The translations under genes and the position numbers were made by a program. Source: an uncultured Chloroflexia bacterium (GTDB lineage Bacteria > Chloroflexota > Limnocylindria > Limnocylindrales > CSP1-4). From it: DNA of 14,340 nt. Below, piece by piece: positions 1 to 14,340 of the stretch; the stretch's first letter is position 1, and the number at the start of each line of letters is the position of its first letter. The DNA is taken from NCBI GenBank assembly GCA_963712745.1, contig CAVQJC010000009.1, positions 1 through 14,340 on the forward strand, read 5' to 3'. The notes under the pieces are model-generated. The model was not told where the DNA came from. It did not search any database and worked only from the letters and a program-made list of their open reading frames with translations.

Positions 1-8
1 GTCAGTGC

Positions 9-37
9 ACGATAGCAGAGGCTTCGAGGGCCGTCAC
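9..37 (-). promoter_or_regulatory. Sigma70-type promoter firing leftward out of the window
   Basis: Minus strand reads GTGACG-17 nt-TATCGT with an extended -10 TG. The 14 bp at 9-22 (acgatagcagaggc) are identical to 7184-7197. Confidence 0.6.
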
Positions 38-145
38 TCGCAGGACGACGGTGACTCGTGCTCAAGGCTGGGACGGCTTGGTTCAGCCTCTACTCTCGGA
101 CCGGACCAGCGAAGGTCTGGCCGGTCGATGAGCGGAAGCCAGCTG

Positions 146-391
146 ATGCCGAAACAGCGGCCGACCCGGCGCCAGCTCGAGGTCCTGCGGGCGTACATCC
201 GGGCCGGCTCGGTGGCGGCCGCGGCCTACGAGCTGGGCATCAGCGAGACGACGGTGCGCCAGCACCTCTCGGGGCTGTACCGGCGGACGGGCTGTCTGAA
301 CGCGGCGCAGGCGGCGTACTGGCTGGGTCGAGCCGACCCATGCGGCACCTGGTCGGATATGCTCTGCTCTGGACCTGGGTCCGAGCGCTGA
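146..391 (+). CDS. Small stand-alone LuxR/GerE-type helix-turn-helix protein
   Basis: PTRRQLEVLRAYIRAGSVAAAAYELGISETTVRQHLSGLYRRTG matches the LuxR C-terminal HTH pattern (LT.RE.EVL...IA..L.IS..TV..H...I..K.G). Start is ATG 146, with ATG 128 as an alternative. Confidence 0.8.
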   Translation: MPKQRPTRRQLEVLRAYIRAGSVAAAAYELGISETTVRQHLSGLYRRTGCLNAAQAAYWLGRADPCGTWSDMLCSGPGSER

Positions 392-520
392 CGCTCGCCC
401 GGAGGCCACGACCATCGCGGTGACCTTCGGGCGACTCGCGATCGGCTCGCCGGCACGTGGCGCGATACTCGGTCGATCGATCGTCCCCGTCATCGCTGTA
501 CGAAGGAGGACACCACGCTC

Positions 521-2385
521 GTGGCATCGAACCCGGTCTTGCCGTCAGTCACATCAGCCAACGCGACGCTACTCGCCGAGCTTCCGTTCGACGACACCCA
601 GGACTTCGACGATGCCCGACGCGGCTTCATCGGGCGGCTCGAGCCGTGCATCGTCCACGACGCCGACGGCCGCGTCGTCTGGGACAACGAGTCCTACCGT
701 GCCTTCCTCGATGGCCCCGCGCCCGACAGCGCCAACCCCAGCCTCTGGCGCCAGTCGCAGCTGAATGCCATCGACGGCCTGTTCGAGGTGGTCCCCGGCA
801 TCTACCAGGTGCGCGGCTTCGACCTCTCGAACATCACCTTCGTCGAGGGCGAGACCGGCGTGCTCGTCATCGACCCCCTCGTCTCCGCGGAGCCCGCCGC
901 AGCGGCGCTCGCGCTCTACCGGCAGCATCGCGGCGACCGACCCGTGGTCGGCGTCATCTACAGCCACAGCCACGTCGACCACTTCGGCGGCGTCAAGGGC
1001 GTCACCAGCCAGGAGGACGTGGACGCCGGCCGCTGCGTCGTGCTCGCCCCCGACGGGTTCATGGAGCACGCCGCCTCGGAGAACGTGTACGCGGGGACCG
1101 CGATGCTGCGGCGCTCGGGCTACATGTTCGGGGCCGCCCTCGAGCGCGGGCCGGCGGGCCAGATCGGGACCGGCCTGGGCCAGACGAACTCGACCGGCAC
1201 CGTCTCGCTCATCGCCCCCACCGACACCATCACGACCACGGGCGAGACGCGCGTCATCGACGGCATCCGCATGGAGTTCCAGAACACGCCCGGCACCGAG
1301 GCGCCGGCGGAGATGAACACGCTGTTCCCCGACCACGGGGCCCTCTGGATGGCCGAGAACGCGACCCACGTGCTCCACAACGTCCTGACCATCCGGGGCG
1401 CGCTCGTCCGCGACCCACGCGTGTGGGCCCGCTATCTGACCGAGGCCATCGACCGCTTCGGCGAGCGGATGGACGTGGTGTTCGCCTCCCACCACTGGCC
1501 CACCTGGGGTCGCGAGCGGGCGCGTCCGGTTCCTCTCCGAGCAGCGCGACCTCTATGCCTACCTCCACGACCAGACGCTGCGCATGCTCAACCAGGGCTT
1601 CAACGGGGCCGAGATCGCGGAGTCCATCCAGATGCCACCCGCGCTCGAGCAGGCTTGGCATGCCCGCGGCTACTACGGCTCGGTGAGCCACAACGTGAAG
1701 GCCATCTACCAGCGCTACATGGGCTGGTATGACGGCAACCCCGCGCGCCTGTGGCAGCACCCGCCCGAGGAGCAGGCCAAGCGCTACGTCAGCGCCATGG
1801 GCGGCATCGACGCGGTCGTGGCGCATCGCGCGGACGGCCTTCGACTCGGGCGACCTGCGCTGGGCGGCCGAGCTGCTGGACCGCGCCATCTTCGCCGACC
1901 CCGCGCACGCGGAGGCGAAGGCGCTCCAGGCGGACACGTTCGAGCAGCTCGCCTTCGGGGCGGAGAACGGGCCGTGGCGCAACGCCTATCTCGCGGGCGC
2001 CACCGAGCTCCGCCACGGCGCCTTCGGCACGCCGGCCACCTACTCACCGGATCTGCTGCGCGCGCTCACCCCGGAGATGGTCTTCGATGCCATCGCCATC
2101 CGGGTCAACGGGCCGAAGGCATGGGACGAGCGCCTGTCGATCGGCATCACCCTGACGGACCTGGACCGCTCCTGGCGGCTGGACCTGCGCAACGGCGTGC
2201 TCATCCACCGCGAGTCCACGGTCGAGGGCGCGGACGTCGTGCTGCGGCTACCGGCGGCGGCGCTCGTGGGCCTGCTCGCAGGGCAGATGGAGGGCATCGC
2301 CGTCGAAGGCGACCAGGGTGTGCTCGGCCGTCTCATGGCGGTGCTCGACGAGCCTGACCCCGGGTTCGCCATCGTGACCCCGTAG
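521..2385 (+). CDS. Alkyl sulfatase, SdsA1/YjcS/BDS1 family (MBL fold, dimerisation domain, SCP2-like C-terminus); two apparent +1 frameshifts near 1520 and 1821
   Basis: RBS gaaggagga precedes GTG 521. Motifs NPSLWRQSQLN, YQVRGFDLSN, HSHVDHFGG, TPGTEAPAEM, HHWPTWG, then HDQTLRMLNQG and RGYYGSVSHNVKAIYQRYMGWYDGNPA, then WRNAYL and FAIVTP are spread over three successive frames. Confidence 0.92.
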
Positions 2386-2412
2386 CGCCCAGCGGCTGCG
2401 GGGGCCTGGAAC

Positions 2413-3273
2413 CTAGCCCTCCCCTTCGAGCGCTCCGGCAGGCGTCTCCAGGCGTCCCGCGATCTCCCGCAGCCGGATGAGTTCCTGGGCATAGCCGGGT
2501 AGCGTGGCCAGGAGCTCGATGTAGGCCAGCACGTAGATGAGCCCCGAGATCACCAGGCCGATCTCGGGCTCGCCGGTGACGAGGACCACGATCGAGTAGA
2601 CGAGGAACACGGCGGCCCCGGCAGCCACGATCGTGGTGTTGGCCGTATCGAGGTCCCAGAGCTTGACGTCCCAGCGCACCAGGCGGCCGAAGTGTGCGCG
2701 CGACGACGCTTCGTCCTGCCGGAGCGCCGCGACCTGCCGCTCCAGCTCATCGTTGTAGCCCTCGTTCAGGCGCAGGTTGAGGCGTCCCGTGACCGCGTAG
2801 ACGACCACCACCAGCGCCAGCAGCGCGATGCAGGCGACGAGCAGCCTGGCATCGATCCCGGCCAGGATGAGCATCGTCCCGAGGATGCCCACGGCACCCA
2901 TGGTCAGCTCCGGCACCGACTCCTGGAAGAAGGCCACGATCTCCTCGACCAATCCCGCCCTCGCCGCGACGACTGACACGTCGCTCGACGCCGCTCGCTC
3001 CCGGGCCGCGACGTCCCCGGCCACATCCTCGAACATCGAGGCGTAGAGGCGTGCGTCGTAGACGCGGCGGATGGCCGAGACGGCGATGATCGCGACGGCC
3101 AGCCCGGCCAGTGCCGCCAGCCCGGCGTACGAATCGTCCAGCAGGCCATCCACCGCGAGGCCGATGACGAGGGGCGCGAGCAGGTAGCCGATGCCCTCGA
3201 GCAGGATGAGCACGAGGGACAGGCCGATCCGCCATCGGTACCGACGAGCCAGGGACCCGACGGAGACCCGCAT
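2413..3273 (-). CDS. ABC transporter six-transmembrane-domain protein (ABC_membrane_3-like) without an ATPase domain
   Basis: MRVSVGSLARRYRWRIGLSLVLILLE..APLVIGLAVDGLL, RRVYDARLY, EEIVAFFQ and LNEGYNDELERQV fit this family, with about 6 hydrophobic segments. The ATG overlaps the upstream TGA (TGATG coupling). Confidence 0.75.
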   Translation of the reverse strand: MRVSVGSLARRYRWRIGLSLVLILLEGIGYLLAPLVIGLAVDGLLDDSYAGLAALAGLAVAIIAVSAIRRVYDARLYASMFEDVAGDVAARERAASSDVSVVAARAGLVEEIVAFFQESVPELTMGAVGILGTMLILAGIDARLLVACIALLALVVVVYAVTGRLNLRLNEGYNDELERQVAALRQDEASSRAHFGRLVRWDVKLWDLDTANTTIVAAGAAVFLVYSIVVLVTGEPEIGLVISGLIYVLAYIELLATLPGYAQELIRLREIAGRLETPAGALEGEG

Positions 3274-3998
3274 CACGGCTGGCCCGTCGAGCCGTGGCGA
3301 CGCCACTCCACCACCAGCGTCACGGCGCTGACCAGGAAGACCCAGAGCGGGAAGAGCAGCACGATCCACTGCAGGAACGAGAGGCTCAGCAGCATCACCA
3401 GGCCGACGGCGTAGCCCACGAGCGCCAGCACGTGCGGCAGCGCGCGCGAACGCCAGATGATCGTCGAGGTCACCAGCACGAAGACGGCCGCGGCTCGGGC
3501 GGCGAGGACGAAGAGGAACGAGAAGGCCGACGAGCGGACCGCCTCGAGTGCCGCGGCCGTGAGCGGCGGGGCGGCGTCGAAGCGGTTGCCCGCGACGAGG
3601 CTCGCGAACTGCGCGGCACCGGCCCAGTACATGGCCACGAAGAGCAGGCCGCTGCCGAGGAAGACGGTGGCGAAGAGCTGGTCCTCGCGCGTGCCGATAC
3701 GGGAGCGGATGAGGCCGATGAACCAGAGGAAGGCGATGCCCGCGAAGGGCGCCACGTAGAGGGCCGCGACCGTCACCGAACCGAGCGCATTGGCCTCGTA
3801 CCAGTCGATGAAGGCGATCTCGTCGAGGCCCTCGGGTGGGCGGGCGCTGACGAGCCACAGAGAAACGACGAAGAGCAGCGAGAAGGCCATACCCGCGATC
3901 CCGGCCGAGCGCAGGACGAGGTGTGGTGTGCCGGCGCCCGCGTCGATGGCTGCCCCGCCGGAGGTCTTGCGCGTGTCGCTTCGATCAGCCGCCGTCAT
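3273..3998 (-). CDS. Conserved hypothetical multi-pass membrane protein
   Basis: RBS aggagggagg precedes ATG 3998. About 6 TM segments. Motif PFAGIAFLWFIGLIRSRIGTREDQLFATVFLGSGLLF resembles an uncharacterised actinobacterial membrane family. The start overlaps the SulP 3' end. Confidence 0.8.
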   Translation of the reverse strand: MTAADRSDTRKTSGGAAIDAGAGTPHLVLRSAGIAGMAFSLLFVVSLWLVSARPPEGLDEIAFIDWYEANALGSVTVAALYVAPFAGIAFLWFIGLIRSRIGTREDQLFATVFLGSGLLFVAMYWAGAAQFASLVAGNRFDAAPPLTAAALEAVRSSAFSFLFVLAARAAAVFVLVTSTIIWRSRALPHVLALVGYAVGLVMLLSLSFLQWIVLLFPLWVFLVSAVTLVVEWRRHGSTGQP

Positions 3999-5687
3999 CG
4001 TCGCTGCCTCCCTCCTCGCTCGACGCTGCCGAGCGGGCAGCGACCCAGGCCTCGGCATCAGCGTGCGCGCGCCGAAGCGCCGCGCCCACGCGCTCGCTGC
4101 CGGCATACACGTTCTCGGACCCGATGAGCGCGGTGATCCCGGCCACGCGCAGCTGCTCCTCCACACGCTCGTTGGTGGACACGATGACGAGCTTACTGCC
4201 GACCGCCGCCAGGCTGAGGGCGTACCGGCGCAGCAGATCCAGGAAGGTGACCCCGAGCTCCACGCGGCCACGCACCCGGATGATCACGACGCTGCCCCGC
4301 GAGGCCCCGTCCGGCGTGGGCAAGAGCGTCTCCAGCACCGGCGCTGCGGCGAAGAAGAGGCTGCCGTAGGGCTGGAGCACCACGACCTCATGGGCCGCCA
4401 GGCGAGCCGGGGGCTCGGTCTCGGTGGCGTGCCCCTCCTCGTCGAGCTCCCAGCGCTTCATCGTCACCTGGTTCGACTGCCGAACGACGTGGAGGATGAT
4501 CGAGAGGCCGACCCCGACGAGCACCGCGTACTGCATCGGGATCACCAGCGTCAGCACGAAGGTCGTCGTGACGACGACCTTCTGGATGGGCCCGGTGCGC
4601 CAGACCGACCACAGGTCGGCCGGCTTGACGGTACGGACGCCGACCACGATGAGGAGTCCCGCGAGCGACGGCATGGCGAGGCTGCCGACGACGTCCCCGA
4701 AGACCACGATGACGACGGCCATGACGAGGCTGGTCAGCAGCAGGGCCAGGCGTGACGCGGCGCCGGCGTGCTTGAGGATGGCCGTGGCCGAGAGCGAGCC
4801 GCCGACCGGCATGCCCTGGAAGACGCCGGCCGCCACGTTGGCCACACCCTGGCCCGTGAAGTCGCGCGAGGTGTCCGGGTAGCGGCCGTCGGGGTTGGGG
4901 AAGCTGGCCGAGATGCTCGCGCCCTGGATGAGTCCGACGAACGCCAGCGAGATGGCCGGGAGCAGCAGCGCCGGAACGAGCGCGAGGTCGGGCATGACGG
5001 GCAGCGGCAGTGAGCCGGTGGCCACGCCGAGGTCATCGATGGTGGCGACACCACTCCAGCCGAGCAGCCACCGGGATGGCCGACGCCGCGACGACGGCGA
5101 TCACCAGGCCCATGGCGCCAAGACGTGTGCGTCCGATGAGGACGATGAGCGCGATGGTGAGGAGACCGACGAAGAGCGACGGCAGGTGCAGCTCCGCCGG
5201 ACTCAGGAACGTGCCGATGGCGCGTGCGATGCGGTTGGGTCCGTCGGCCGCGTACCCGGTGAGGTCTGCCAGCTGGCCGAGCACGATGTTGACGCCGACC
5301 GCGTTGATGAAGCCGACCATGACGGCGTTGGAGACGAAGCGCATGATGAAGCCGAGGCGCAACAGGCCCACGACGAGCATGATCACGCCGGTGACCGACC
5401 GCGAGCGTGAAGAGCGCCGCTCGGGGTCGAGCGCGGTGTGGACCTCGGGGATATCGGCGATGACGACGGCCATCGCGCCGGTGCCCTGGACGGCCATGAA
5501 CGCCGAGCTCGTGACCAGGGCGCCCGCCGCGGGACCCACGAGATAGGCGTACAGCCCCGACAGCGGGTTCACGCCGGCCAGCAGCCCGTTCGCCAGGCCG
5601 GCCGGGCACGCTCTGGATGCCGAGCACGAGCGCGGCCAGCGCGTCCTGCCGCAGGGTGTCGAGGCGGATCGGGATGGGTCGTCTCAA
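3985..5687 (-). CDS. SulP/SLC26 family anion transporter with C-terminal STAS domain; apparent frameshifts near 5600, 5418, 5398 and 5070
   Basis: DALAALVLGIQSVP, GLANGLLAGVNPLSGLYAY, LRLGFIMRFVSNAVMVGFINAVG, QGVANVAAGVFQGMPVGGSLS and the STAS motif YGSLFFAAA. Probable TTG start at 5687 after gagga. Confidence 0.9.
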
Positions 5688-5792
5688 CGGTGTCCTCTGC
5701 GATACGGTCCGCCGCCGATCCTGGGCCGTCGGACAGAACGCGCCACGTGGCGCCGCGGTCCTGCCGGACCGGCCGAGGCCCGGCACTCGCGA

Positions 5793-5825
5793 CATCGGGG
5801 CCTCCGAGGGTGCAGGACCCCGATG
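5793..5825 (-). terminator. GC-rich stem-loop downstream of the META gene
   Basis: catcgggg (5793-5800) pairs with ccccgatg (5818-5825), just after the inferred stop at 5837. No clear U-tract. Confidence 0.35.
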
Positions 5826-5836
5826 GGCTCGATGGC

Positions 5837-6634
5837 TCAGTTCCCGATGGCGCTGTTCGCCATGCACCTGCAGCGCGCCCTCGTCGTCTCGCAGCTCGAG
5901 CACTCCCGATACGATCGCCCACGTGGTGGCGGCCTGGAGCGCGGTGAGGTACTGCCCCTCGAAGGCGTCGGTGGTCTCGTCGCAGGACATCATCGTGCCC
6001 ATCAGCGGGCCGATGGCGATGGTGTCACCGTCCACGCTGTAGCCACCGCTGAAGCGATTGCAGCCAGCGAAGCCCTCGACGGTGCCGTCGGGCTGGAAGG
6101 TGGCCGTCGCGTCGATCCCGTCGGGCACCCCCACCACGGCCTCGCTGCCGTCGTTGACCATGGTCACGGTCCACGGACCCTCGATGCTCGCGGGCGCCAT
6201 GGGGCTGTAGGTGAGGACCGTCGCACCACTCGGCATCGGACATGGCGAGGCCACCGTCCATCGATGACGTAGCTGGCCACGGCGGCGAGAGCGGCGAGGT
6301 AGCTCTGCTCGAACGCGTTGGCGGCGTCGTCGCACAGCTTCATCGTGGTCGCGATGGGGCCGAACGTCAGGCTGGAGACGCCATCGGTGGCGTAGCTGAC
6401 CATGAAGCGGTTGCAGCCGGCGAAGCCACCGGCCTCGGTCTCGGTGAACAGGATGTCGCCGTCGTCACCGCTCGCTAGCGGCGTATCACCGACACTGGTG
6501 AGCGACCATGAGGTGTCGGCCAAGCCGTCCGCCATGGCCTCCGGCGAAGCCGACTGCGCGGCCGTGGCGCCACTGATGCCGAGCACCAACGAACCGGCCA
6601 TGAGCCACCCCAGGACTCGGAAGCGTTCGGGCAT
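5837..6634 (-). CDS. Secreted protein with two tandem META (HslJ-like) domains; apparent frameshifts near 6258, 6230 and 5865
   Basis: RBS gaggaggag. Signal peptide MPERFRVLGWLMAGSLVLGISGATAA. Two copies of W.(L/V)T....GFAGCNRF...Y...G......GP...TM..C. Removing one base near 5865 gives the end ALQVMANSAIGN*. Confidence 0.85.
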
Positions 6635-6776
6635 CATCTCCTCCTCGCGTTGTCGTCGACCATGCTTCGTCGGCCAGACCATCCGTCCGACGGCCATCGG
6701 AAGCGTACCTCGCTGCATCCAGCCAACCACTGCGGCACGGCACGGCGCCGATGCCATGGTCTCGGCGCGTCCCACT

Positions 6777-6806
6777 TCCGTACGACTTCCCGAACATCCG
6801 TACGAC
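6777..6806. promoter_or_regulatory. Phased direct repeat tccgtacgac x2 upstream of the META-SulP operon; candidate regulator site
   Basis: Exact 10-mers at 6777-6786 and 6797-6806, period 20 bp, with a degenerate copy between them. Confidence 0.35.
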
Positions 6807-7040
6807 GCCTCGCTTGACGCCCGACTGACCGCCCCGTAGACCGAGGACGTGCACGGACGTCCTCCCCTCCTCCATCCGCGTCGATCTGCGCTATGAGCCC
6901 GCTCGAGCTCGTCCTGCTTCGGGGACGCCTGCTACCTCTTCGGCCTGGTCTCAGGCGCCGTCATCATTCCCCGGGTCAGTGTCGTGGACCCCGGTCGGTC
7001 CCGAGGGTTGCGGGGACGTGATCAGGCATGTCCGCGCGTG

Positions 7041-7068
7041 GTTCAGCCGATAACGTTCAGCCCATAAC
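7041..7068. repeat. Tandem 14-bp direct repeat gttcagcc(g/c)ataac; integrase arm-type site candidate
   Basis: Copies at 7041-7054 and 7055-7068 with one mismatch, about 65 bp from the tRNA break point. Confidence 0.6.
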
Positions 7069-7071
7069 AAG

Positions 7072-7094
7072 GCCCTCACCGCATCGGTGAGGGC
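7072..7094 (-). terminator. Intrinsic terminator-like hairpin downstream of the tRNA-Val half
   Basis: Perfect 10-bp stem gccctcaccg-cat-cggtgagggc, followed on the minus strand by cttgttat. Confidence 0.6.
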
Positions 7095-7132
7095 TCGTCA
7101 TCGTGCGACACCTGCGCCGCATTCGGGTCGAC

Positions 7133-7173
7133 GCATGTCAAGCAAGTGCTCTAACCAGCTGAGCTAGCCGCCC
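7133..7173 (-). tRNA. tRNA-Val(GAC) 5' half only (truncated; att-site remnant)
   Basis: GGGCGGC TA GCTC AGCTGGTTA GAGC A CTTGC TTGACAT GC gives acceptor 5' strand, D-arm, anticodon stem 5' strand and GAC loop. The sequence then diverges (GTCGA instead of AAG) and no T-arm follows. Confidence 0.88.
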
Positions 7174-7183
7174 GAGTTCCAAA

Positions 7184-7212
7184 ACGATAGCAGAGGCAGT
7201 CGATGTAGTCAC
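7184..7212 (-). promoter_or_regulatory. Sigma70-type promoter of the tRNA-Val half
   Basis: GTGACT-17 nt-TATCGT with an extended -10 TG, 10 nt upstream of the tRNA 5' G. Confidence 0.7.
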
Positions 7213-7222
7213 ACCCGCGTCG

Positions 7223-7400
7223 ATGTCCGGTGATCTCAGCAACGAGCTTGCGTCGTTCATCCCTGCGATACAGGCCAATAGCGTCAGCCCAAACACGATC
7301 ACAGCCTATGGCCGCGTCGAGCCCCAGATCAAGTCGTGACTCATGGAAAGAGGGAGACCAACCGACCTCGAGGCCATCGGGCGGCGACCTTGTGGCCGAC
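7223..7400 (+). pseudogene. N-terminal (SAM-like/core-binding) remnant of a tyrosine recombinase/integrase
   Basis: Reads MSGDLSNELASFIPAIQANSVSPNTITAYGRVEPQIKS*LMERGRPTDLEAIGRR. The F...L.....SPNTI.AY.......W pattern is typical of Xer/Int N-termini. In-frame TGA at 7337-7339 and no catalytic domain. The end coordinate is approximate. Confidence 0.6.
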
Positions 7401-7492
7401 CGCGTCATCCGTGCCGTGCAAGCCGCTCGAGCCACGGATTCGAGATTGCTTCAGCATGTCTCGACGGCGCAGATCATCGGAGTACCTGCCGT

Positions 7493-7536
7493 TCGCGAGC
7501 AGCAGCTCCTCGGTTCAAGTCCGAGTGACGGCTGCA
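7493..7536 (+). tRNA. Degenerate tRNA 3' half, probably tRNA-Thr(CGT)-derived (att remnant)
   Basis: Perfect T-arm CTCGG-TTCAAGT-CCGAG (7509-7525), then acceptor 3' strand TGACGGC, discriminator T and GCA (CCA-like). Upstream tcgcgagcagcagctc resembles TCGTAA-GCAGC-AGGTC. No recognisable D-arm. The isotype is inferred. Confidence 0.65.
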
Positions 7537-7543
7537 CTTCCGC

Positions 7544-7567
7544 GCGTGAAACGGCCCCGTTTCGCGT
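7544..7567 (+). terminator. Stem-loop immediately after the tRNA 3' fragment
   Basis: gcgtgaaacg-gccc-cgtttcgcgt, a 10-bp stem with two G-U pairs. Confidence 0.4.
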
Positions 7568-7592
7568 TGCGTGGCGGCGCAGACTGCCCTGC

Positions 7593-7616
7593 CTGACCCC
7601 TACGCTGACCCCTGCG
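7593..7616. repeat. Tandem 12-bp direct repeat ctgacccct(a/g)cg; arm-type site candidate
   Basis: Copies at 7593-7604 and 7605-7616, with a partial third ctgaccc at 7660-7666. Confidence 0.5.
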
Positions 7617-7782: not shown

Positions 7783-7895
7783 GTGGCCACCGAGGTGGTT
7801 ACGGGTTGGGCCGAAGCGTGGAAGCCGTTGATGTAGTCGAAGGCGACGGTCAGGGCGATGACCAGCAGCAGCGATGGCTTCAGGGCGTCAAGCAC
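7783..7895 (-). pseudogene. Truncated, diverged 5' fragment of a Pit-family phosphate transporter gene
   Basis: VLDALKPSLLLVIALTVAFDYINGFHASAQPVTTSVAT aligns to the pit N-terminus at 12271-12383. Shared exact stretches cgtggaagccgttgatgtagtcgaag and gtggccaccgaggtgg. Confidence 0.85.
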
Positions 7896-8016
7896 CAGGG
7901 CTTCGATCTCGCGATGTTCGGACAAAGCGGCGCCTCTCGCCATTGGGACGGCCGGGCGTGTTGCTCATTGCGACCCGAATGCCTCGCCAAGGCGACGGCC
8001 CCACCCTTTGCGTGAC

Positions 8017-9081
8017 TCACGGAGCCGGCGCAATCCCGCTCTCGACGGGGACGAACACGACGTCGACCTCCACGGCCCGTTCCAATCTGCCCGCGATCTG
8101 CTCAGCGAGGAGACCCGGGCTCGGAGGCGAGTCATCGCCGGTCACCGTGACCGAGATGGTCATCGGATCGTGGGAGTGGTCGACATCGACGACCTCGAGC
8201 GTGAGGTCGGGGGCCCAGGCCGCGACACTGTCGGCCGCGACGGCGACCGCATTCGCCTGTTGCAGTCGCTCCAGCGAGTGCACCAGAAGCGGGATGGCGA
8301 CGATGACGACCCCGACGATGACGACGATCCTGGCGTACTTGGCCTGGCGCACGCCCGACTCGTCTCGGAAGGCGGCGAAGCCAGCGCCAGCGAGGACCAG
8401 CCCGGCGGCGAGCACGATGGCCAGGAGATTGGTGGTGAAGAGCAGGAGCGCGCCGAGGGCGAGGTCGATCTGCCCGAGCCCCAGCGTGATGCCGACCGCG
8501 GCCAGCGGCGGGACCAGTGCCACCGCGATGCCGACGCCCGGTAGCGCTCCGCTGGCCTCGGTCCGTACCGCTACGAATCCGCCGGCGGCTCCAGCTGCGA
8601 GCGCGATGCCGAGATCGATGAGGTTGGGGCCCGTCCGCGCCAACAGTTCATCCGGCAGCAGCAGGCCCGTCCTCAGGACCGGTGCAAGGAATGAGATCAG
8701 GACGCCCACGCCGATGGCCGCCAGCGCGCCGGCGGCCACGATGGCGAGGGACTCCAGCGTGCGGCGACCCCAGCCCTGCACGATGGCGGCAGCGATGGCC
8801 AGGATCGGCGTCATCAGGGGCGCCACGAGCATGGCGCCGATGACGACCGCGGCGCTGTCGTTGGCCAGTCCGAATCCGGCGATGGCCGCCGACAGAAGCA
8901 TGAGGACGAAGTACTGCTGCAGATAAGGGATGCGTCGGTCGTCTTCGAAGAAGAATGCTTCGAAGATCTGCGACCGCTCCTCTGGCGTCGCACTGCGTCC
9001 GCGGAAACCCAGTTTGCCCATCGGCGCAAGTCGTTGCCGGGTGACCTCGACCTCCGTTGTGGGCTCACGCTGAGCGCTCAC
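8017..9081 (-). CDS. DUF389 / TIGR00341-like membrane protein
   Basis: LSAAIAGFGLANDSAAVVIGAMLVAPLMTPI, ELLARTGPNLIDLGIALAAGAAG and LPGVGIAVALVPPL are family hallmarks. GTG start at 9081 (or 9084) after ggggag. Confidence 0.9.
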   Translation of the reverse strand: MSAQREPTTEVEVTRQRLAPMGKLGFRGRSATPEERSQIFEAFFFEDDRRIPYLQQYFVLMLLSAAIAGFGLANDSAAVVIGAMLVAPLMTPILAIAAAIVQGWGRRTLESLAIVAAGALAAIGVGVLISFLAPVLRTGLLLPDELLARTGPNLIDLGIALAAGAAGGFVAVRTEASGALPGVGIAVALVPPLAAVGITLGLGQIDLALGALLLFTTNLLAIVLAAGLVLAGAGFAAFRDESGVRQAKYARIVVIVGVVIVAIPLLVHSLERLQQANAVAVAADSVAAWAPDLTLEVVDVDHSHDPMTISVTVTGDDSPPSPGLLAEQIAGRLERAVEVDVVFVPVESGIAPAP

Positions 9082-9311
9082 CACCGTCTCCCCTCTGTGG
9101 CGTCGAAGCGGCCGTCCTCGACTTCGGGCCGGCGGCGGAGCGTGGCTGAGCGACCAGCCGCGAACTCGCTCAGTCCAGCCCTGCCTGGCCCGCCTGCGCC
9201 CAGATCGTTCGGACCGGCGCCGCACCCGGCAGGGAACTGCGAGACCCAGCGCCTCGAGGCGGGTGTGGTCCGGGCCGCTCTTCGTCTTCGTCCGGAAGCG
9301 ACCCGGAACGG

Positions 9312-9546
9312 CTACCCGGCGTCGGCGTCGGCCTCGGTGACCTCCTGCTTCTGGATGCCCAGCTCGTCCTGCGCCTGGGCCAGCTCCTCGTCGGTCATCT
9401 CCTCGGGATCGACCCCGGTGTGCTGCTGGATCTGGTCGGCCTGTTGCTGGGTCATCTTGTATGCGCCGTAGGCGATGCATGCCGCCTGCGAGCACGCGGC
9501 GGCGACGACGTCGACGCATCGCTCTTCTTCGTGGTCCGAGTGGCAT
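9312..9546 (-). CDS. Small hypothetical protein with Arg-rich N-terminus and acidic C-terminus; one apparent +1 frameshift near 9478
   Basis: RBS aggagga precedes ATG 9546. Removing one C joins MPLGPRRRAMRRRRRRRVLAGGM to IAYGAYKMTQQQADQIQQHTGVDPEEMTDEELAQAQDELGIQKQEVTEADADAG*. Confidence 0.7.
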
Positions 9547-9892: not shown

Positions 9893-10697
9893 TCAGGCGC
9901 CGCTCGTGGGCGCGCCCACGGTGTACCGCCAGCTGCGCCACTGGATGGAGGACGAGCTGGGCTTCGCCTTCGGGCCGCGCGAGTCAGCCGCGCTCGATGG
10001 GGCGAGCGACGATGGTGCATCGGTCGCGCTGGAGCGCGATGCCGCGGATGACATGCGGCGCACCCGCAGGAACGGCTGGGCCAACATCAGCACCGTGGCC
10101 AACACATAGAGGCCGACCGCGATCGGCGGCGCGACCAGGGCAACGACGACGGCGATCAGCCAGACCCCATTCGAGATCCTGCGCTGCCGTGTCAGCGATG
10201 CCAGCTTCTCATCGGCGACCTCGCCACCCAGCAGCGATCGTTGGCGTACGAGGTAGGCCATCAGCAGCGTGAGCATCACCGATGCGACGAACACGTTGAG
10301 GCCGTAGACGAGCACCGCCACCCCCGAATCGGGGCCACTGAGATTGCTCACCATCAGGTTGGTCGAGAACGGCAGCAGGGCGATGAACAGCAGGGCCAGG
10401 AGATTGAGTCCGGAAGCGAGGGTGTCGCTACCCTCCATGAGCCTCGTGGTGCGGGCGTGGGTCATCCAGCTGCCACCGATGAAGGCGAAGCTGATGAGAT
10501 AGCCCAGGAACTCGGGCCACTCTTCGAGCAGGCTCTCGAGCAGGTCGGCCCCGGTGGGCACGGGCAGCTCGAGGACGAGCAGGGTGATGGCGATGGCGAA
10601 GACGCCATCGGAAAAGGCGTTGAAACGGTCGAGTGGCAGGTCGCCGGGGATACGCGTGCGGCGATCTCTCGTCGGTCGTCTGGTCAGTCACCGGCAT
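9893..10697 (-). CDS. TMEM175 family (DUF1211) potassium channel; apparent frameshift near 10668; true C-terminus uncertain
   Basis: RFNAFSDGVFAIAITLLVLEL (RxxxFSD signature), YLISFAFIGGSWMTH and LLPFST, with 6 TM segments. RBS aaggag precedes ATG 10697 or GTG 10691. Confidence 0.9.
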
Positions 10698-10712
10698 TCT
10701 CCTTGTCTTGGC

Positions 10713-10745
10713 CAGCTAGCGTGCCACGCGGTGGCACGCTAGCTG
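10713..10745. repeat. Perfect 15-bp inverted repeat overlapping the DUF47 stop codon
   Basis: cagctagcgtgccac-gcg-gtggcacgctagctg. Confidence 0.85.
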
Positions 10746-11360
10746 CCCTTGTGCACGACGCGCTGGATCGATCTCCGAGACATCCTCGGCGGCGTCGATG
10801 GACTCCTCGAGCGAACCGTAGATGTCGCGCCACTTGATGACCTCGAGCGGGTCGCTGCCGCCCTGGAACAATCCCCCGATGGCCGCTCGCGAAAGCCCGT
10901 CGGCTTCGTTCTCGAGGTTGTGGACGCGCCGCACATGCTCGCCCAAGCCCTTCATCGACTCGAACTTGCCGAAGGCCATGTTCAGCTCGACGGCTTGCTC
11001 CTCGAGGATGGCCGCGAGATGTTGGGCCTCTTCGGTCGGTGCCTGGACGTCGAAGATCTGCATCGCCTCGGCCGTCTCCTGGATGCGATCCACCACGTCG
11101 TCCATGCGCCGCGCCAACTCGTGGATGTCCTCGCGATCGATGGGCGTGATGAAGGCATCCTCGAGACGCTCCTCGATCTCATCGCCGATCTCATCGCCGG
11201 CGTGCTCCAGCACCTGGATGCGCTCGATCCGCGCATCGAGGTCGTCGTAGGAATCCATCAGGCCCCGTAGCTCGCGGGCGGCCGCCAACAGGTTCGCCCC
11301 ATCCGCGATGAGCAGGTCGAAGAACCTCACATCGCGGGGCATCAGGCGCAGGGTGACCAT
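10739..11360 (-). CDS. DUF47 / PhoU-like phosphate transport regulator (Pit accessory); apparent frameshift near 10770
   Basis: LEHAGDEI, FITPIDREDI..LA..MDDVVD, LENEAD and EVIKWRDIYGSLEESIDAAEDV. Removing one G gives the canonical end IIQRVVHKGS*. Lies directly downstream of pit. Confidence 0.92.
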
Positions 11361-11376
11361 CGGGTCGGACCTCCGT

Positions 11377-12383
11377 TCAGCTCAGTCCGAGAACGTCCAG
11401 GACCACCCATGCGGCGGCACCCACCAGGGCGGCGGCAGGGATGGTCACGTTCCAGGCGGTCACGATCGTACGTGCGATACCCCAGTTCACCCGTCGGGTG
11501 CCCTTGGTGGTGCCCACGCCGGTGATGGCGCTGGAGATGACATGGGTGGTCGAGACCGGCATGCCCATCGAGGCCGTGGCCACGAGCACGGTCGCGGCCG
11601 TCGTCTCAGCGGCGAAGCCATGGACAGGCTCCAACTCGACGACGCGCTGGCCCATCGTCTTCATGATGCGCCAGCCTCCGGCCGCGGTACCAAGGGACAT
11701 CGCGCTGGCGGCGATGATGATGACCCAGACCGGCACGGTGTCGTCATCGATGAGACCAGCGGCGAACAAGGCCAGCGCGATGATGCCCATCGTCTTCTGG
11801 GCATCGTTCGAACCGTGGGCGAAGGCCATGAACCCGCTGAAAACACCTGCGCCTTGCGGAAGACGCGAGACGCCGGCCGTCTTCGGAGCGCGGAAGAAGA
11901 GCCGGGCCAGCAGCACCATGAAGAGCAGGCCGAGGACGAAGCCGACCAGCGGCGACGAGAACATCGGGACGATGACCTTGTTCGACGATGCCTTCGGTAT
12001 TGAGCGCTCCGAAGCCGGCAGCCACCACGGTCGCGCCGAGCAGGCCTCCGATGAGCGCATGTGAGGACGAGCAGGGGATGCCGAACCACCACGTGAACAG
12101 GTTCCAGGCGATGGCCCCGAGCAACGCGGCGATGACCACGGCTTCGGTCGTCGTATCGACATCGACAAGACCGGCGCCGATGGTCCTGGCTGACAGCCGT
12201 TCCGGCGAAGGCACCGGCGAAGTTCATCGTCGCCGCCATGAGCACGGCCGTCCGCGGCCGCAGCGCTTGCGTGGCCACCGAGGTGGCGATGGCGTTGGCC
12301 TAATCGTGGAAGCCGTTGATGTAGTCGAAGAGGACGGCCAGGACGATGACGAGCAGCAGCGACAGCGTCAGGGCATCGAGCAC
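11377..12383 (-). CDS. pit: Pit family inorganic phosphate transporter; in-frame TAG at 12300-12302 and apparent frameshifts near 12190, 11983, 11875 and 11835
   Basis: FDYINGFHD*ANAIATSVAT, TWWFGIPCSSSHALIGGLLGA, AFAHGSNDAQKTMGII, GWRIMKTMG and GMPVSTTHVISSAITGVG. GTG start at 12383. Confidence 0.92.
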
Positions 12384-12418
12384 CTAGTCCCCTTGGATCC
12401 TCGATGGAGGGCATCGGG

Positions 12419-12454
12419 TCGCCCGCCGGCTCCGTTGACGTCACCGGCGGGCGA
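12419..12454 (-). terminator. Stem-loop between the DUF1269-like gene and pit
   Basis: An 11-bp stem, tcgcccgccgg (12419-12429) with ccggcgggcga (12444-12454). No strong U-tract. Confidence 0.45.
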
Positions 12455-12482
12455 TCTCTCCCAAGAGTGGAGTTCTGTGCGC

Positions 12483-13112
12483 CTAGGCAGACGCCTTGGC
12501 CGCCGCGTCCTTGATGGAGCTGGCCGTGGCGTCGTCGACACCGGCGCTGCGGACGCTGCTGGCATCCGGCATCTTGGCCGTAACGGCCGCGACATCGTTG
12601 GCCACGACGAGCGCGAGGATGCCCGACTGGTTGGGTCGAGGGCACCGGTGAGGGCGTCACCGGCCTCGGACTTGTGCCACTCGTTGCGGAGCTTGCCCAG
12701 CACGCCACCGACGACACCCGCGCCGACCGCGCCGGCGATGAGGGTGGGCGGGAAGAAGATGGCCAGCACGACGCCACCGACGGCGCCCCACTTGACGCCG
12801 GTCTTGGTGCTGTGGTCGGTCATCTTCTGGATCTTGACCTTGCCCGCATCGTCAGTCTTGATGACGAGCACACCCTCGATGCCGAGGCCGCCCGCGACTT
12901 CAGCGTCCTGAAGGTTGTCGTAGGCCACTGGCCGAAGTCTCGTCGTTGAAGGCGGCCACGATGGCGGCGTAGTCGTAGTCGGTCACCACGGCGCCGACGG
13001 CCTGCACGCCGCTGTCGTCACCGACGGCTGCCACCACGGTGGCGCCGGTGTCGTCAGCCTCGGCGGCCACGACGGCGTCGACGTCCTGGGGGGTCTGCTG
13101 ATCGTCTGTCAT
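12483..13112 (-). CDS. DUF1269-like membrane protein (glycine-zipper); apparent frameshifts near 12930 and 12630
   Basis: RBS aaggag. AAFNDETSA..AYDNL, GVLVIKTDDAGKVKI, TKTGVKWGAVGGVVLAIFFPPTLIAGAVGAGVVGGVLGKL, then SGILALV...IKDAAAKASA*. Confidence 0.75.
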
Positions 13113-13189
13113 CTCGTTTCTCCTTGTCGCTGCTGGGGTTCTCCTGGGCCGTGCGCGAGGTCGCGCACGGCCATGGTTGGCTGGGTCGC

Positions 13190-14188
13190 CTAGACCTCTG
13201 CCTCGATCTCTTCGGCGGCGATGACGGCATCGAGGGCCTCGGCCGCCGCGGCCTCCTCGACGATCTCGGCGGCCACGAGCGCGTCGACGGCCTCCTGGGC
13301 AGCCTCGTCCTCGATGACCTTGGCCAGGTACAGGGCACGCAGGGCCTCGATCGCGGCGGCAGCCTTGATCGCGGCTGCCGCAGCGACCGCATCCTCGGCC
13401 TCTTCGACGGCGGACTCCTCGACATCCATGGCCATGCGCACGACGTCGGCAGCCTCCTCCTTGGCGGCCTCCTCGATGAGCTCGGCCGCGAAGAGCGTGT
13501 CGATGACGTCCTCGGCCGCGGCATCCTCGATGGCGATGGCGGTGGCGACCACGTCGGCGGCCTCGAGCATGGCGGCCTCCTCGATGAGGTCGGCCTCCTC
13601 GAGGACCTGGGCGATCTCGATGGCTGCCGCGAGCTTGACCTCCTCGGCGGCCTCGATGGCGGCCTCGGCCTCGAGACGGGCGTCGAGCCCGGCGCCGATG
13701 GTCATGAGCAGGTCCGGTCCGATCATGGCCTGCAGCAGCAGCTCGCCACCGGCCTCGGCGAGGGCCTCACGCAGGTTGGCGGCCCAGTGGTGCTCGATGA
13801 CCATGACCGCGGCAGCACTGCCCGCGGGGATGCTGTCGGCGAGGTCCGCGAGCTGGGCGCTGCTCATGCCGTAGTCCCGGGCGGCCACGCGCAGCTCCCC
13901 GAGGACGGCCCTCTCCTCCATGCCCTCGAGGCCGTCGACCTCGAGGCCGATGAGCCCACCCGCGACCGCGCCGAGGCGCAGGCGCTCGGCCTCCGACAGG
14001 TCGGTCAGGTGCATCGTCGAGCTGATGGAGCCGCCGCTGTCCTTCTGCACGAAGAGCAGGTCGACGAGGCGGATGACGCCGCGCTTGCGGGCCTTCTTGA
14101 GCTCGGCCAGGATCTGGCCGTTGAAATCCGGCTTCTCGAAGCCGATGACGAAGACCTGCACAGGTCCGGTGACGATCTTGTCGGCCAT
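13190..14188 (-). CDS. DUF6325/DUF1269-like protein fused to a long Ala/Glu-rich repeat tail
   Basis: RBS gaaggag precedes ATG 14188. GPVQVFVIGF..F.GQILAEL, GVIRLVDLLFVQKD and LADSIPAGSAAAVMVIEHHWA..LREAL..AGG. The C-terminal ~160 aa are 18-aa repeats. Confidence 0.8.
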   Translation of the reverse strand: MADKIVTGPVQVFVIGFEKPDFNGQILAELKKARKRGVIRLVDLLFVQKDSGGSISSTMHLTDLSEAERLRLGAVAGGLIGLEVDGLEGMEERAVLGELRVAARDYGMSSAQLADLADSIPAGSAAAVMVIEHHWAANLREALAEAGGELLLQAMIGPDLLMTIGAGLDARLEAEAAIEAAEEVKLAAAIEIAQVLEEADLIEEAAMLEAADVVATAIAIEDAAAEDVIDTLFAAELIEEAAKEEAADVVRMAMDVEESAVEEAEDAVAAAAAIKAAAAIEALRALYLAKVIEDEAAQEAVDALVAAEIVEEAAAAEALDAVIAAEEIEAEV

Positions 14189-14340
14189 GGGATGGTTCTC
14201 CTTCACTGGTGTGTGTGGCGCCTTGTTCTCCAAGATCAAGCCCCGTCTCGTGGGACTTCCCTAAGCCCTAGTCGCTAGGCAGCGGCCGGTGTGGCAGACG
14301 CCGATGCGTCAGCTGCCGGCTCCGGCATCTCATGACCCGC

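Follow-up and report, generated by a model that had tools for sequence, protein, structure and literature searches.

What process leaves one half of a transfer RNA (tRNA) gene, together with a promoter-like sequence, at the edge of a 7-kb block of genes? The question is raised by a stretch of 14,340 bases (the window), which is the entire contig C9 of a genome bin (G000) from an uncultured member of the Chloroflexota. A reading made from its letters alone (the sequence-only reading) had taken positions 1-7132 for a lone integrative element, which crossed over in the anticodon loop of tRNA-Val(GAC) and restored the gene with a promoter and 5' half of its own. From a comparison with related genomes we consider it probable that 1-7132 is an integrase-less cassette in a tandem array at tRNA-Val(GAC), built by reversed-polarity site-specific recombination in the anticodon loop. 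The bin consists of 20 contigs (4.2 Mb, ~70% G+C, 84.5% complete, 5% contamination) and was compared with 48 other species of its genus, giving a set of 49 species genomes; relatives are numbered G and contigs C.

A displaced tRNA-Val half in an attachment unit

The features on which the argument rests are the following.

1-108, minus strand: upstream (promoter) arm of a tRNA-Val unit, from its alignment to sequences upstream of tRNA-Val in G010, G044 and the bin contigs C10, C16 and C8
7041-7132, minus strand: element-side arm with a terminator-like hairpin (7072-7094) and paired ATGCGG-type direct repeats, 87-95% identical in seven copies
7133-7173, minus strand: displaced tRNA-Val(GAC) 5' half, bases 1-41, 100% identical to C10:7833-7873 (BLAST of the assembly tRNAs)
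7184-7212, minus strand: GTGACT-17-TATCGT promoter-like site of the displaced half, from its 14-mer twin and the conservation of TATCGT
7184-7378, plus strand: N-terminal remnant of a Xer-like tyrosine integrase with an open reading frame (ORF) at 7223-7339 (38 amino acids, aa), from tblastn with the integrase of G051

ARAGORN found no complete tRNA in the window, and the only intact tRNA-Val(GAC) gene of the bin is located at C10:7833-7909. Alignment of the half at 7133-7173 with this gene shows an identity that stops two bases past the anticodon loop, exactly where the sequence-only reading had placed the end of the fragment. The crossover in the anticodon loop which that reading had proposed is also supported, and the same break is seen in other copies.

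The promoter-like site of the half has a twin, GTGACG-17-TATCGT at 9-37, which lies within the promoter arm 1-108. The 14-mer common to both sites has exactly two occurrences, at 9-22 and 7184-7197 in the same orientation, against a chance expectation of 0.01, and two matches were obtained in none of 200 shuffles. The twin is thus not random, and the similarity is wider than had been described, as all of 1-108 shows homology to the sequence that precedes tRNA-Val in relatives, and to three other copies in the bin. The left-end promoter is of the type that precedes tRNA-Val in G010, a relative whose site is unoccupied, and the contig ends ~5 nt short of the expected 5' start of the tRNA. A GAC...TATCGT pair is found ~10 nt upstream of tRNA-Val in most of the aligned genus members and copies, and we regard 9-37 and 7184-7212 as putative tRNA promoters.

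Promoter arm, tRNA 5' half and a conserved arm of ~95 nt together form an attachment unit of ~160 bp (7041-7212). A terminator scan found the hairpin at 7072-7094 on the minus strand to consist of a 10-bp stem followed by a T-rich tail, and the RNA of half plus arm folds more stably than shuffled sequences (z = -2.9). The element 1-7132 therefore has a complete unit on its right and the promoter arm of a second unit on its left, both in direct orientation.

Arrays of tRNA halves in the bin

Seven copies of the Val unit are present in the bin (four on C8, two on C16 and the one on C9); their arms are 87-95% identical and the DNA between the copies is unrelated. Thus 1-7132 is not the lone island of the sequence-only reading and is instead one unit of a tandem array. 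For the 27-nt core of the arm we found no exact match in viral contigs and five exact matches in genome contigs, all from metagenome-assembled genomes of Chloroflexota.

A census by BLAST with all 47 tRNAs of the bin, in which end-fragments outside annotated tRNAs were counted and an internal Glu piece and a nearly full-length Thr copy were excluded, gave 58 tRNA halves. The 5' type accounts for 31 of them (Pro(TGG) 21, Val 7, Lys(TTT) 2, Arg(TCG) 1) and the 3' type for 27 (Thr(CGT) 13, Gly(TCC) 8, Asn 5, Arg(GCG) 1), and the breakpoint is the anticodon loop in all of these families. Seven tRNA genes occur in the same order on C1:338-421 kb and C2:1-110 kb, where the DNA, apart from the ribosomal RNA, is 76-82% identical; this may reflect an old duplication or two related organisms in one bin, and as the bin may be such a mixture these copy counts are upper bounds.

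The longest row is found at C5:73679-110161, where sixteen tRNA-Pro 5' halves, spaced 0.95-5.2 kb apart, stand within 36 kb upstream of the intact tRNA-Pro gene. Each of these Pro units has a promoter arm of ~70 nt and an arm of ~100 nt with a doubled GAGCGGCGAAGGC motif, and the intervals hold one to four genes, none of them an integrase. Two Pro cassettes carry putative toxin-antitoxin-like pairs (C5 84850-85397 and 103911-104342), named from their N-terminal sequences. The Thr units are of the opposite kind and consist of the 3' half from the anticodon loop on, followed by an arm in which the CTGACCCCT motif is doubled. One of them is present in the window, 280 nt from the tRNA-Val unit and between the integrase stump and a DUF389 gene:

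7492-7614, plus strand: tRNA-Thr(CGT) unit, a degenerate 3' half and arm with doubled CTGACCCCT, from alignment with 12 copies on C5 and C2

An integrase family at the tRNA genes

In agreement with the sequence-only reading, Pfam and related domain scans found no recombinase domain in 1-7132, so that the element itself is without an integrase. Directly beyond it, the remnant at 7184-7378 lies head-to-head with the tRNA-Val half and matches aa 4-64 of the 316-aa integrase of G051 (47.7% identity, E = 6e-9, tblastn). A Pfam search with the 38-aa stump alone gave no match, its identity having come from relatives, and homologues of the 38-aa peptide stand beside tRNA-Val in 5 of the 48 other species. 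In G051 the intact integrase ORF starts 105 nt from an intact tRNA-Val gene and points away from it. This protein has a Phage_integrase domain and a SAM-like N-terminal domain; its best models are XerA, XerC and XerD, all below their cut-offs, the closest solved structure is XerA (5hxy), and the NCBIfam integron-integrase model gives 42.5 bits at a cut-off of 265.

Paralogues with 39-47% identity are present in 10 of the 48 other genus members. Among 13 integrase loci in the genus, 12 face an intact tRNA head-to-head (Arg(TCG) in six cases, Val in three, and Pro, Ala and Gly once each) and one is co-directional. We extended seven of these loci by 20 kb on the integrase side and searched for the tRNA half at the far end. 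An exact 39-nt 5' half was found beyond the integrase in three of them, defining elements of ~17.1, 9.8 and 9.1 kb, while one locus had a 20-nt partial piece and three had nothing. An integrase lies within the related elements of reversed polarity in G052, G005 and G032. In a sample of the phylum the family was detected in 27 of 251 genomes at E <= 1e-40, and 24 of 30 loci from this sample have a tRNA within ~380 nt of the integrase start, 13 in divergent and 11 in co-directional arrangement, the latter being the usual 3' polarity. The remaining six loci show no tRNA, four of them having less than 200 nt of upstream sequence.

Traces of this family in the bin are confined to two N-terminal stumps, that in the window (7184-7378) and one at C17:373739-373891, which covers aa 5-55 with 41% identity and is head-to-head with an intact tRNA-Lys(TTT) gene (374074-374149). 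Degraded integrases are also found in relatives, as a gene with two in-frame TGA codons in G011 and a 78-aa stump in G051:C15. The only serine recombinase of the bin is a small resolvase distant from any array. We had also considered an integron-like platform with the integrase always at the far end of an array and rejected it, as the C17 stump adjoins the intact tRNA-Lys and the fragments lie beyond. Two Lys 5' halves are located 3 and 5.7 kb further upstream of this tRNA-Lys.

Clustering of the ORFs near the fragments revealed no recombinase-like family, only cargo families and a LuxR-type gene which in the window is found next to the left-end promoter arm:

128-391, plus strand: LuxR/GerE-type helix-turn-helix protein of 87 aa, divergent from the tRNA promoter (Pfam GerE, E = 3.8e-8)

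Eleven copies or pieces of this gene are present in the bin, several of them 150-290 nt from tRNA-Val or tRNA-Pro units, and many more occur across the genus. In six cases it occupies, 150-265 nt from the half, the position which the integrase has in autonomous elements. The LuxR-type gene is a recurrent hallmark of these cassettes.

Occupied and unoccupied sites in relatives

The arm-bearing Val unit is present in 9 of the 48 other genus species. A 5' fragment upstream of its intact cognate tRNA, in the same orientation and on a single contig, is seen in G052, where a worn fragment, an exact fragment and then the intact tRNA-Val gene follow each other with spacings of 1.4 and 7.1 kb; in G000 the intact gene is on C10 and not on C9.

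Unoccupied tRNA-Val sites, for which the sequence-only reading had suggested a comparison of related genomes, were indeed found in G010, G001, G008 and G007, where the intact gene stands beside the same downstream gene. No fragment was found anywhere in these four assemblies, and no LuxR-type or cassette genes at their tRNA-Val. Directly upstream of tRNA-Val, G010 has TMEM175-like and DUF1269 genes and, as a relic of 27 aa, a PhoU_div gene, a set that matches the content of the right part of the window:

9893-14239, minus strand: TMEM175-like, PhoU_div/DUF47, PHO4 phosphate transporter and DUF1269 genes (Pfam)

In G044 the LuxR-type gene and TMEM175 come after the outermost fragment, the TMEM175 and DUF1269 genes thus being located beyond the array as they are in the window, and in G046 DUF1269 precedes the units, i.e. 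it also lies beyond the array.

The cargo of the window has a close relative in another species, as 132-6721 is 90.9% identical to G001:C2:303901-310478. The core DNA next to tRNA-Val is 78.7% identical between G000 and G001 over 7.7 kb, and the higher similarity of the cargo argues for its recent exchange between species.

Proposed mechanism and its alternatives

We propose the following model. An incoming circle would carry the unit, i.e. a tRNA promoter, the first 41 bases of the tRNA and the ~95-nt arm. The integrase would cut inside the anticodon loop, and the incoming promoter and bases 1-41 would become joined to the resident 3' half, so that the tRNA stays whole. The earlier promoter and 5' half would be pushed upstream, where they would read into the terminator-like hairpin of the arm and probably be silenced by it. 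The enzyme would be the Xer-like tyrosine recombinase of ~316 aa, whose gene stands head-to-head with the tRNA in autonomous elements, and a cassette such as 1-7132 would be mobile only if a related integrase were supplied in trans. The LuxR-type protein may act as a regulator or as an accessory DNA-binding factor. Of the reversed-polarity model in the sequence-only reading, the crossover in the loop and the unoccupied sites were thus retained, and the replacement of promoter and 5' half by incoming DNA is likewise supported; a matching integrase family stands head-to-head with the tRNA, at the place required by the model. The single island had to be given up.

Several observations weigh against this model. 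A tblastn search with family members found no intact integrase of the family in this bin of 84.5% completeness. No site is called by a sigma-70 consensus scan at 9-37 or 7184-7212, where 8 of 12 hexamer positions match, and the term promoter therefore refers to position and conservation, on which this part of the earlier claim stands; the site at 7184-7212 is moreover not simply native, as it abuts the integrase remnant. The left boundary of the element is the contig end, where the second attachment site is cut after its promoter arm. The tRNA families are interleaved, with a Thr unit at 7492-7614 and Pro units beside Val units on C8, a mixture that would not be expected if elements had simply inserted one after another at a single tRNA. 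In G001 the cargo copy lies away from tRNA-Val and has no tRNA halves around it; the 10-kb copy is bracketed by direct repeats of ~480 bp, which are a small module also found at 6814-7000 of the window, and the block can therefore also move or persist by other means. The assignment of the right part of the window to the ancestral flank is not clean either, as a second TMEM175-like/DUF1269 block at C15:16233-18880, which adjoins a tRNA-Gly 3' fragment, is closer to G010 (81-88%) than the copy in the window (78-80%). Finally, 22 public read runs were listed, the best of them containing a fraction of 0.31 of the sampled words, and four were assembled against the window. The resulting contigs were short and came from relatives at 90-99% identity, and at 7133 their loose ends correspond to intact tRNA-Val genes of the ordinary kind. 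These short contigs, which are uninformative about circles, contained neither a joint from ~7132 to ~1, as expected of an excised circle, nor a bridge across the left end, and no empty allele of the window cassette was found in these public data.

The array could instead be simply the wreck of successive full-size, integrase-bearing islands which lost their integrase genes and much of their remaining DNA by deletion, and whose cassettes never moved without an integrase and are now immobile. Such pure decay would account for the integrase stumps and pseudogenes (7184-7378, C17:373739-373891, G011 and G051:C15), and complete integrase-bearing elements of 9-17 kb do exist in relatives. Several cargo genes of the window are split, but these splits may be long-read indel errors. 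We nevertheless regard decay as unlikely, since the sixteen Pro cassettes keep both arms and show no trace of an integrase by tblastn with 11 family members, the Val arms have remained 87-95% identical around unrelated cargo, and cargo is 91% identical between species that are 21% apart in their core DNA. Units of 160-250 bp might alternatively serve mainly as portable homology for RecA-dependent exchange after DNA uptake, by which cassettes would come, go and change their order, and the intermixed units of different tRNA families, the repeats of ~480 bp instead of tRNA halves around the G001 cargo and the lack of an integrase in the bin would all suit homologous recombination. Every copy, however, breaks at the same base of the anticodon loop and a dedicated integrase family is found at these tRNAs, which are marks of site-specific recombination, and we think it quite unlikely that homology is the main route; it may add to the turnover without explaining how the units arose.

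The array of integrase-less cassettes built by site-specific recombination therefore remains our preferred explanation, and within it the left end of the window can be completed in two ways. As the window is the whole of C9, the DNA left of base 1 is absent from the assembly, and neither the arm nor a tRNA-Val 3' half was found by BLAST at any other contig end in the bin. The eight assembled copies, i.e. seven halves and the intact gene, all have an upstream flank of their own, and the partner of the left end must therefore be unassembled. There is a minor but appreciable chance that an entire tRNA-Val(GAC) begins within a few bases to the left of base 1, which would make 1-7132 the cassette nearest the gene: the alignment of the left end with the upstream regions of intact genes runs base for base up to ~5 nt from their start, and C10 has the same layout of LuxR-type gene, promoter and intact tRNA. 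A further half with its arm, to which we give the larger share, fits equally well, and the bin has seven halves against one intact gene, that on C10 having a different upstream cassette of its own. That the whole repeat pattern results from misassembly or from two organisms mixed in the bin is very improbable. The contamination of 5%, the common tRNA order on C1 and C2 and the two TMEM175/DUF1269 blocks would be in line with such an artefact, but the same units and arrays are present within long single contigs of G052, G044 and G046, so that mixing could inflate the counts and not create the structure.

Relation to known systems

Integration into tRNA genes with reversed polarity is known but rare. 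In Table 1 of the Islander paper (PMC4383910) 159 of 3919 islands, i.e. ~4%, have a 5' fragment and 3760 a 3' fragment, and PMC6563490 cites Zhao & Williams 2002 on tRNA-gene-integrating islands of reversed polarity. Accounts of this polarity concern single islands with an integrase. The elements described here resemble such islands in the crossover in the anticodon loop, in the 5' fragment displaced upstream in direct orientation, in the tyrosine integrase adjoining the regenerated tRNA and in the need of the element to bring a promoter. Islander (PMC4383910) accepted tandem arrays only with an integrase in each member, and only four arrays of at least three were found. Unlike the islands of that description, most units here have no integrase, are as small as ~1 kb and are stacked up to 16 deep.

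With integrons the arrays have in common a Xer-like tyrosine recombinase without an arm domain beside a fixed insertion point, and long rows of small recombinase-less cassettes, with toxin-antitoxin pairs and one conserved, hairpin-containing site per unit. They differ from integrons in that no IntI-type integrase is involved (42.5 bits against the cut-off of 265), that tRNA halves in double-strand form, with promoter and arm, serve as the sites and not attC, that insertion takes place into a tRNA gene and that every cassette has a putative promoter of its own. The cis-mobilizable elements (CIMEs) of streptococcal families of integrative and conjugative elements are att-flanked stretches of DNA without recombination genes, which are moved by the integrase of a related element. 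By analogy, the cassettes are probably att-flanked, have neither integrase nor excisionase, stand in tandem with related elements and are presumably mobilised in trans. In contrast to CIMEs, the units are far more numerous and more densely placed, and a tRNA 5' half with a putative promoter serves as the site. The tycheposons of Prochlorococcus are, as described in bioRxiv 10.1101/2020.12.28.424599, cargo elements at tRNA genes as well, with partial tRNAs between neighbours and newcomers that push older elements inward. The same description, however, defines them by an integrase and replication hallmark genes of their own, at an average of one to two per genome, and its passages on their structure do not mention 5' halves or promoters. 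A text search of the literature, covering the articles themselves, found no account of integrase-less arrays of tRNA-half cassettes.

The same chemistry as in single islands appears to serve a cassette economy here, with dozens of small recombinase-less units per genome and in both polarities, and cassettes appear to be placed at at least eight tRNA species and to pass from one species to another in an uncultured soil genus of wide distribution. We tentatively suggest, and would put the chances of it at slightly below even, that soil Chloroflexota possess an integron-like, tRNA-anchored system of gene capture, in which one family of Xer-like integrases, located at one side or the other (5' or 3') of many different tRNA genes, captures, stacks and reshuffles integrase-less cassettes. 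Their site would combine an arm with a tRNA half, which in the 5' version brings a promoter of its own, and with more than 50 sites per genome the arrays would be the main store of flexible genes. If cassettes are indeed moved in trans, this would be a second, independent solution to the problem solved by integrons and would explain a large flexible gene pool despite the few integrase genes found. For annotation it means that finders which need one integrase per island will miss such arrays and that tRNA finders will mis-handle the halves.

Cargo and remaining genes of the window

Apart from the LuxR-type gene, 1-7132 carries the following genes, and the DUF389 gene follows beyond the Thr unit.

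521-2385, plus strand: alkyl sulfatase in two frames, split at ~1730 (Pfam Lactamase_B, Alkyl_sulf_dimr, Alkyl_sulf_C)
2413-4271, minus strand: ABC-type membrane protein (ABC_membrane_3) with a frame change near 3260 (Pfam, E = 4.4e-34; frame analysis by G+C at third codon positions, GC3)
3985-5572, minus strand: SulP-family sulfate permease with STAS domain, ORFs 5033-5572 and 3985-5025 (Pfam Sulfate_transp in both, STAS in the second)
5876-6775, minus strand: two META-domain proteins (Pfam META, E = 1.7e-19 and 5.3e-21)
6814-7000, plus strand: small module of a hairpin leader and a hydrophobic ORF of ~40 aa, ATG at 6893, out of frame here (alignment of C10, C17, C20 and two G001 copies)
8017-9546, minus strand: DUF389 gene (Pfam, E = 7e-33)

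The alkyl sulfatase has a metallo-beta-lactamase domain, a dimerisation domain and an SCP2-like C-terminal domain. Its split and those of the ABC and SulP genes are as likely to be long-read indel errors as real pseudogenes; related metagenome contigs are one base shorter at 5066, near the split of SulP, and contigs of relatives show single-base differences close to some of the breaks. Pfam scans revealed no replication genes in the window. A candidate gene at 7874-8926 on the plus strand was rejected as an antisense shadow of the DUF389 gene.

The small module recurs beside attachment units and consists of a TTGACG-type leader, a hairpin and the hydrophobic ORF, which starts with MSPLELV. Copies are located at C10:7005-7249, C17:5127-5371, C20:35198-35438 and C8:94249-94419 and, in locus L060 of G001:C2, at 1846-2323 and 11837-12314. 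On C10 and C17 the module comes after a tRNA-Pro 5' piece which is cut at about base 30. It could encode a small membrane peptide or represent a further type of site.

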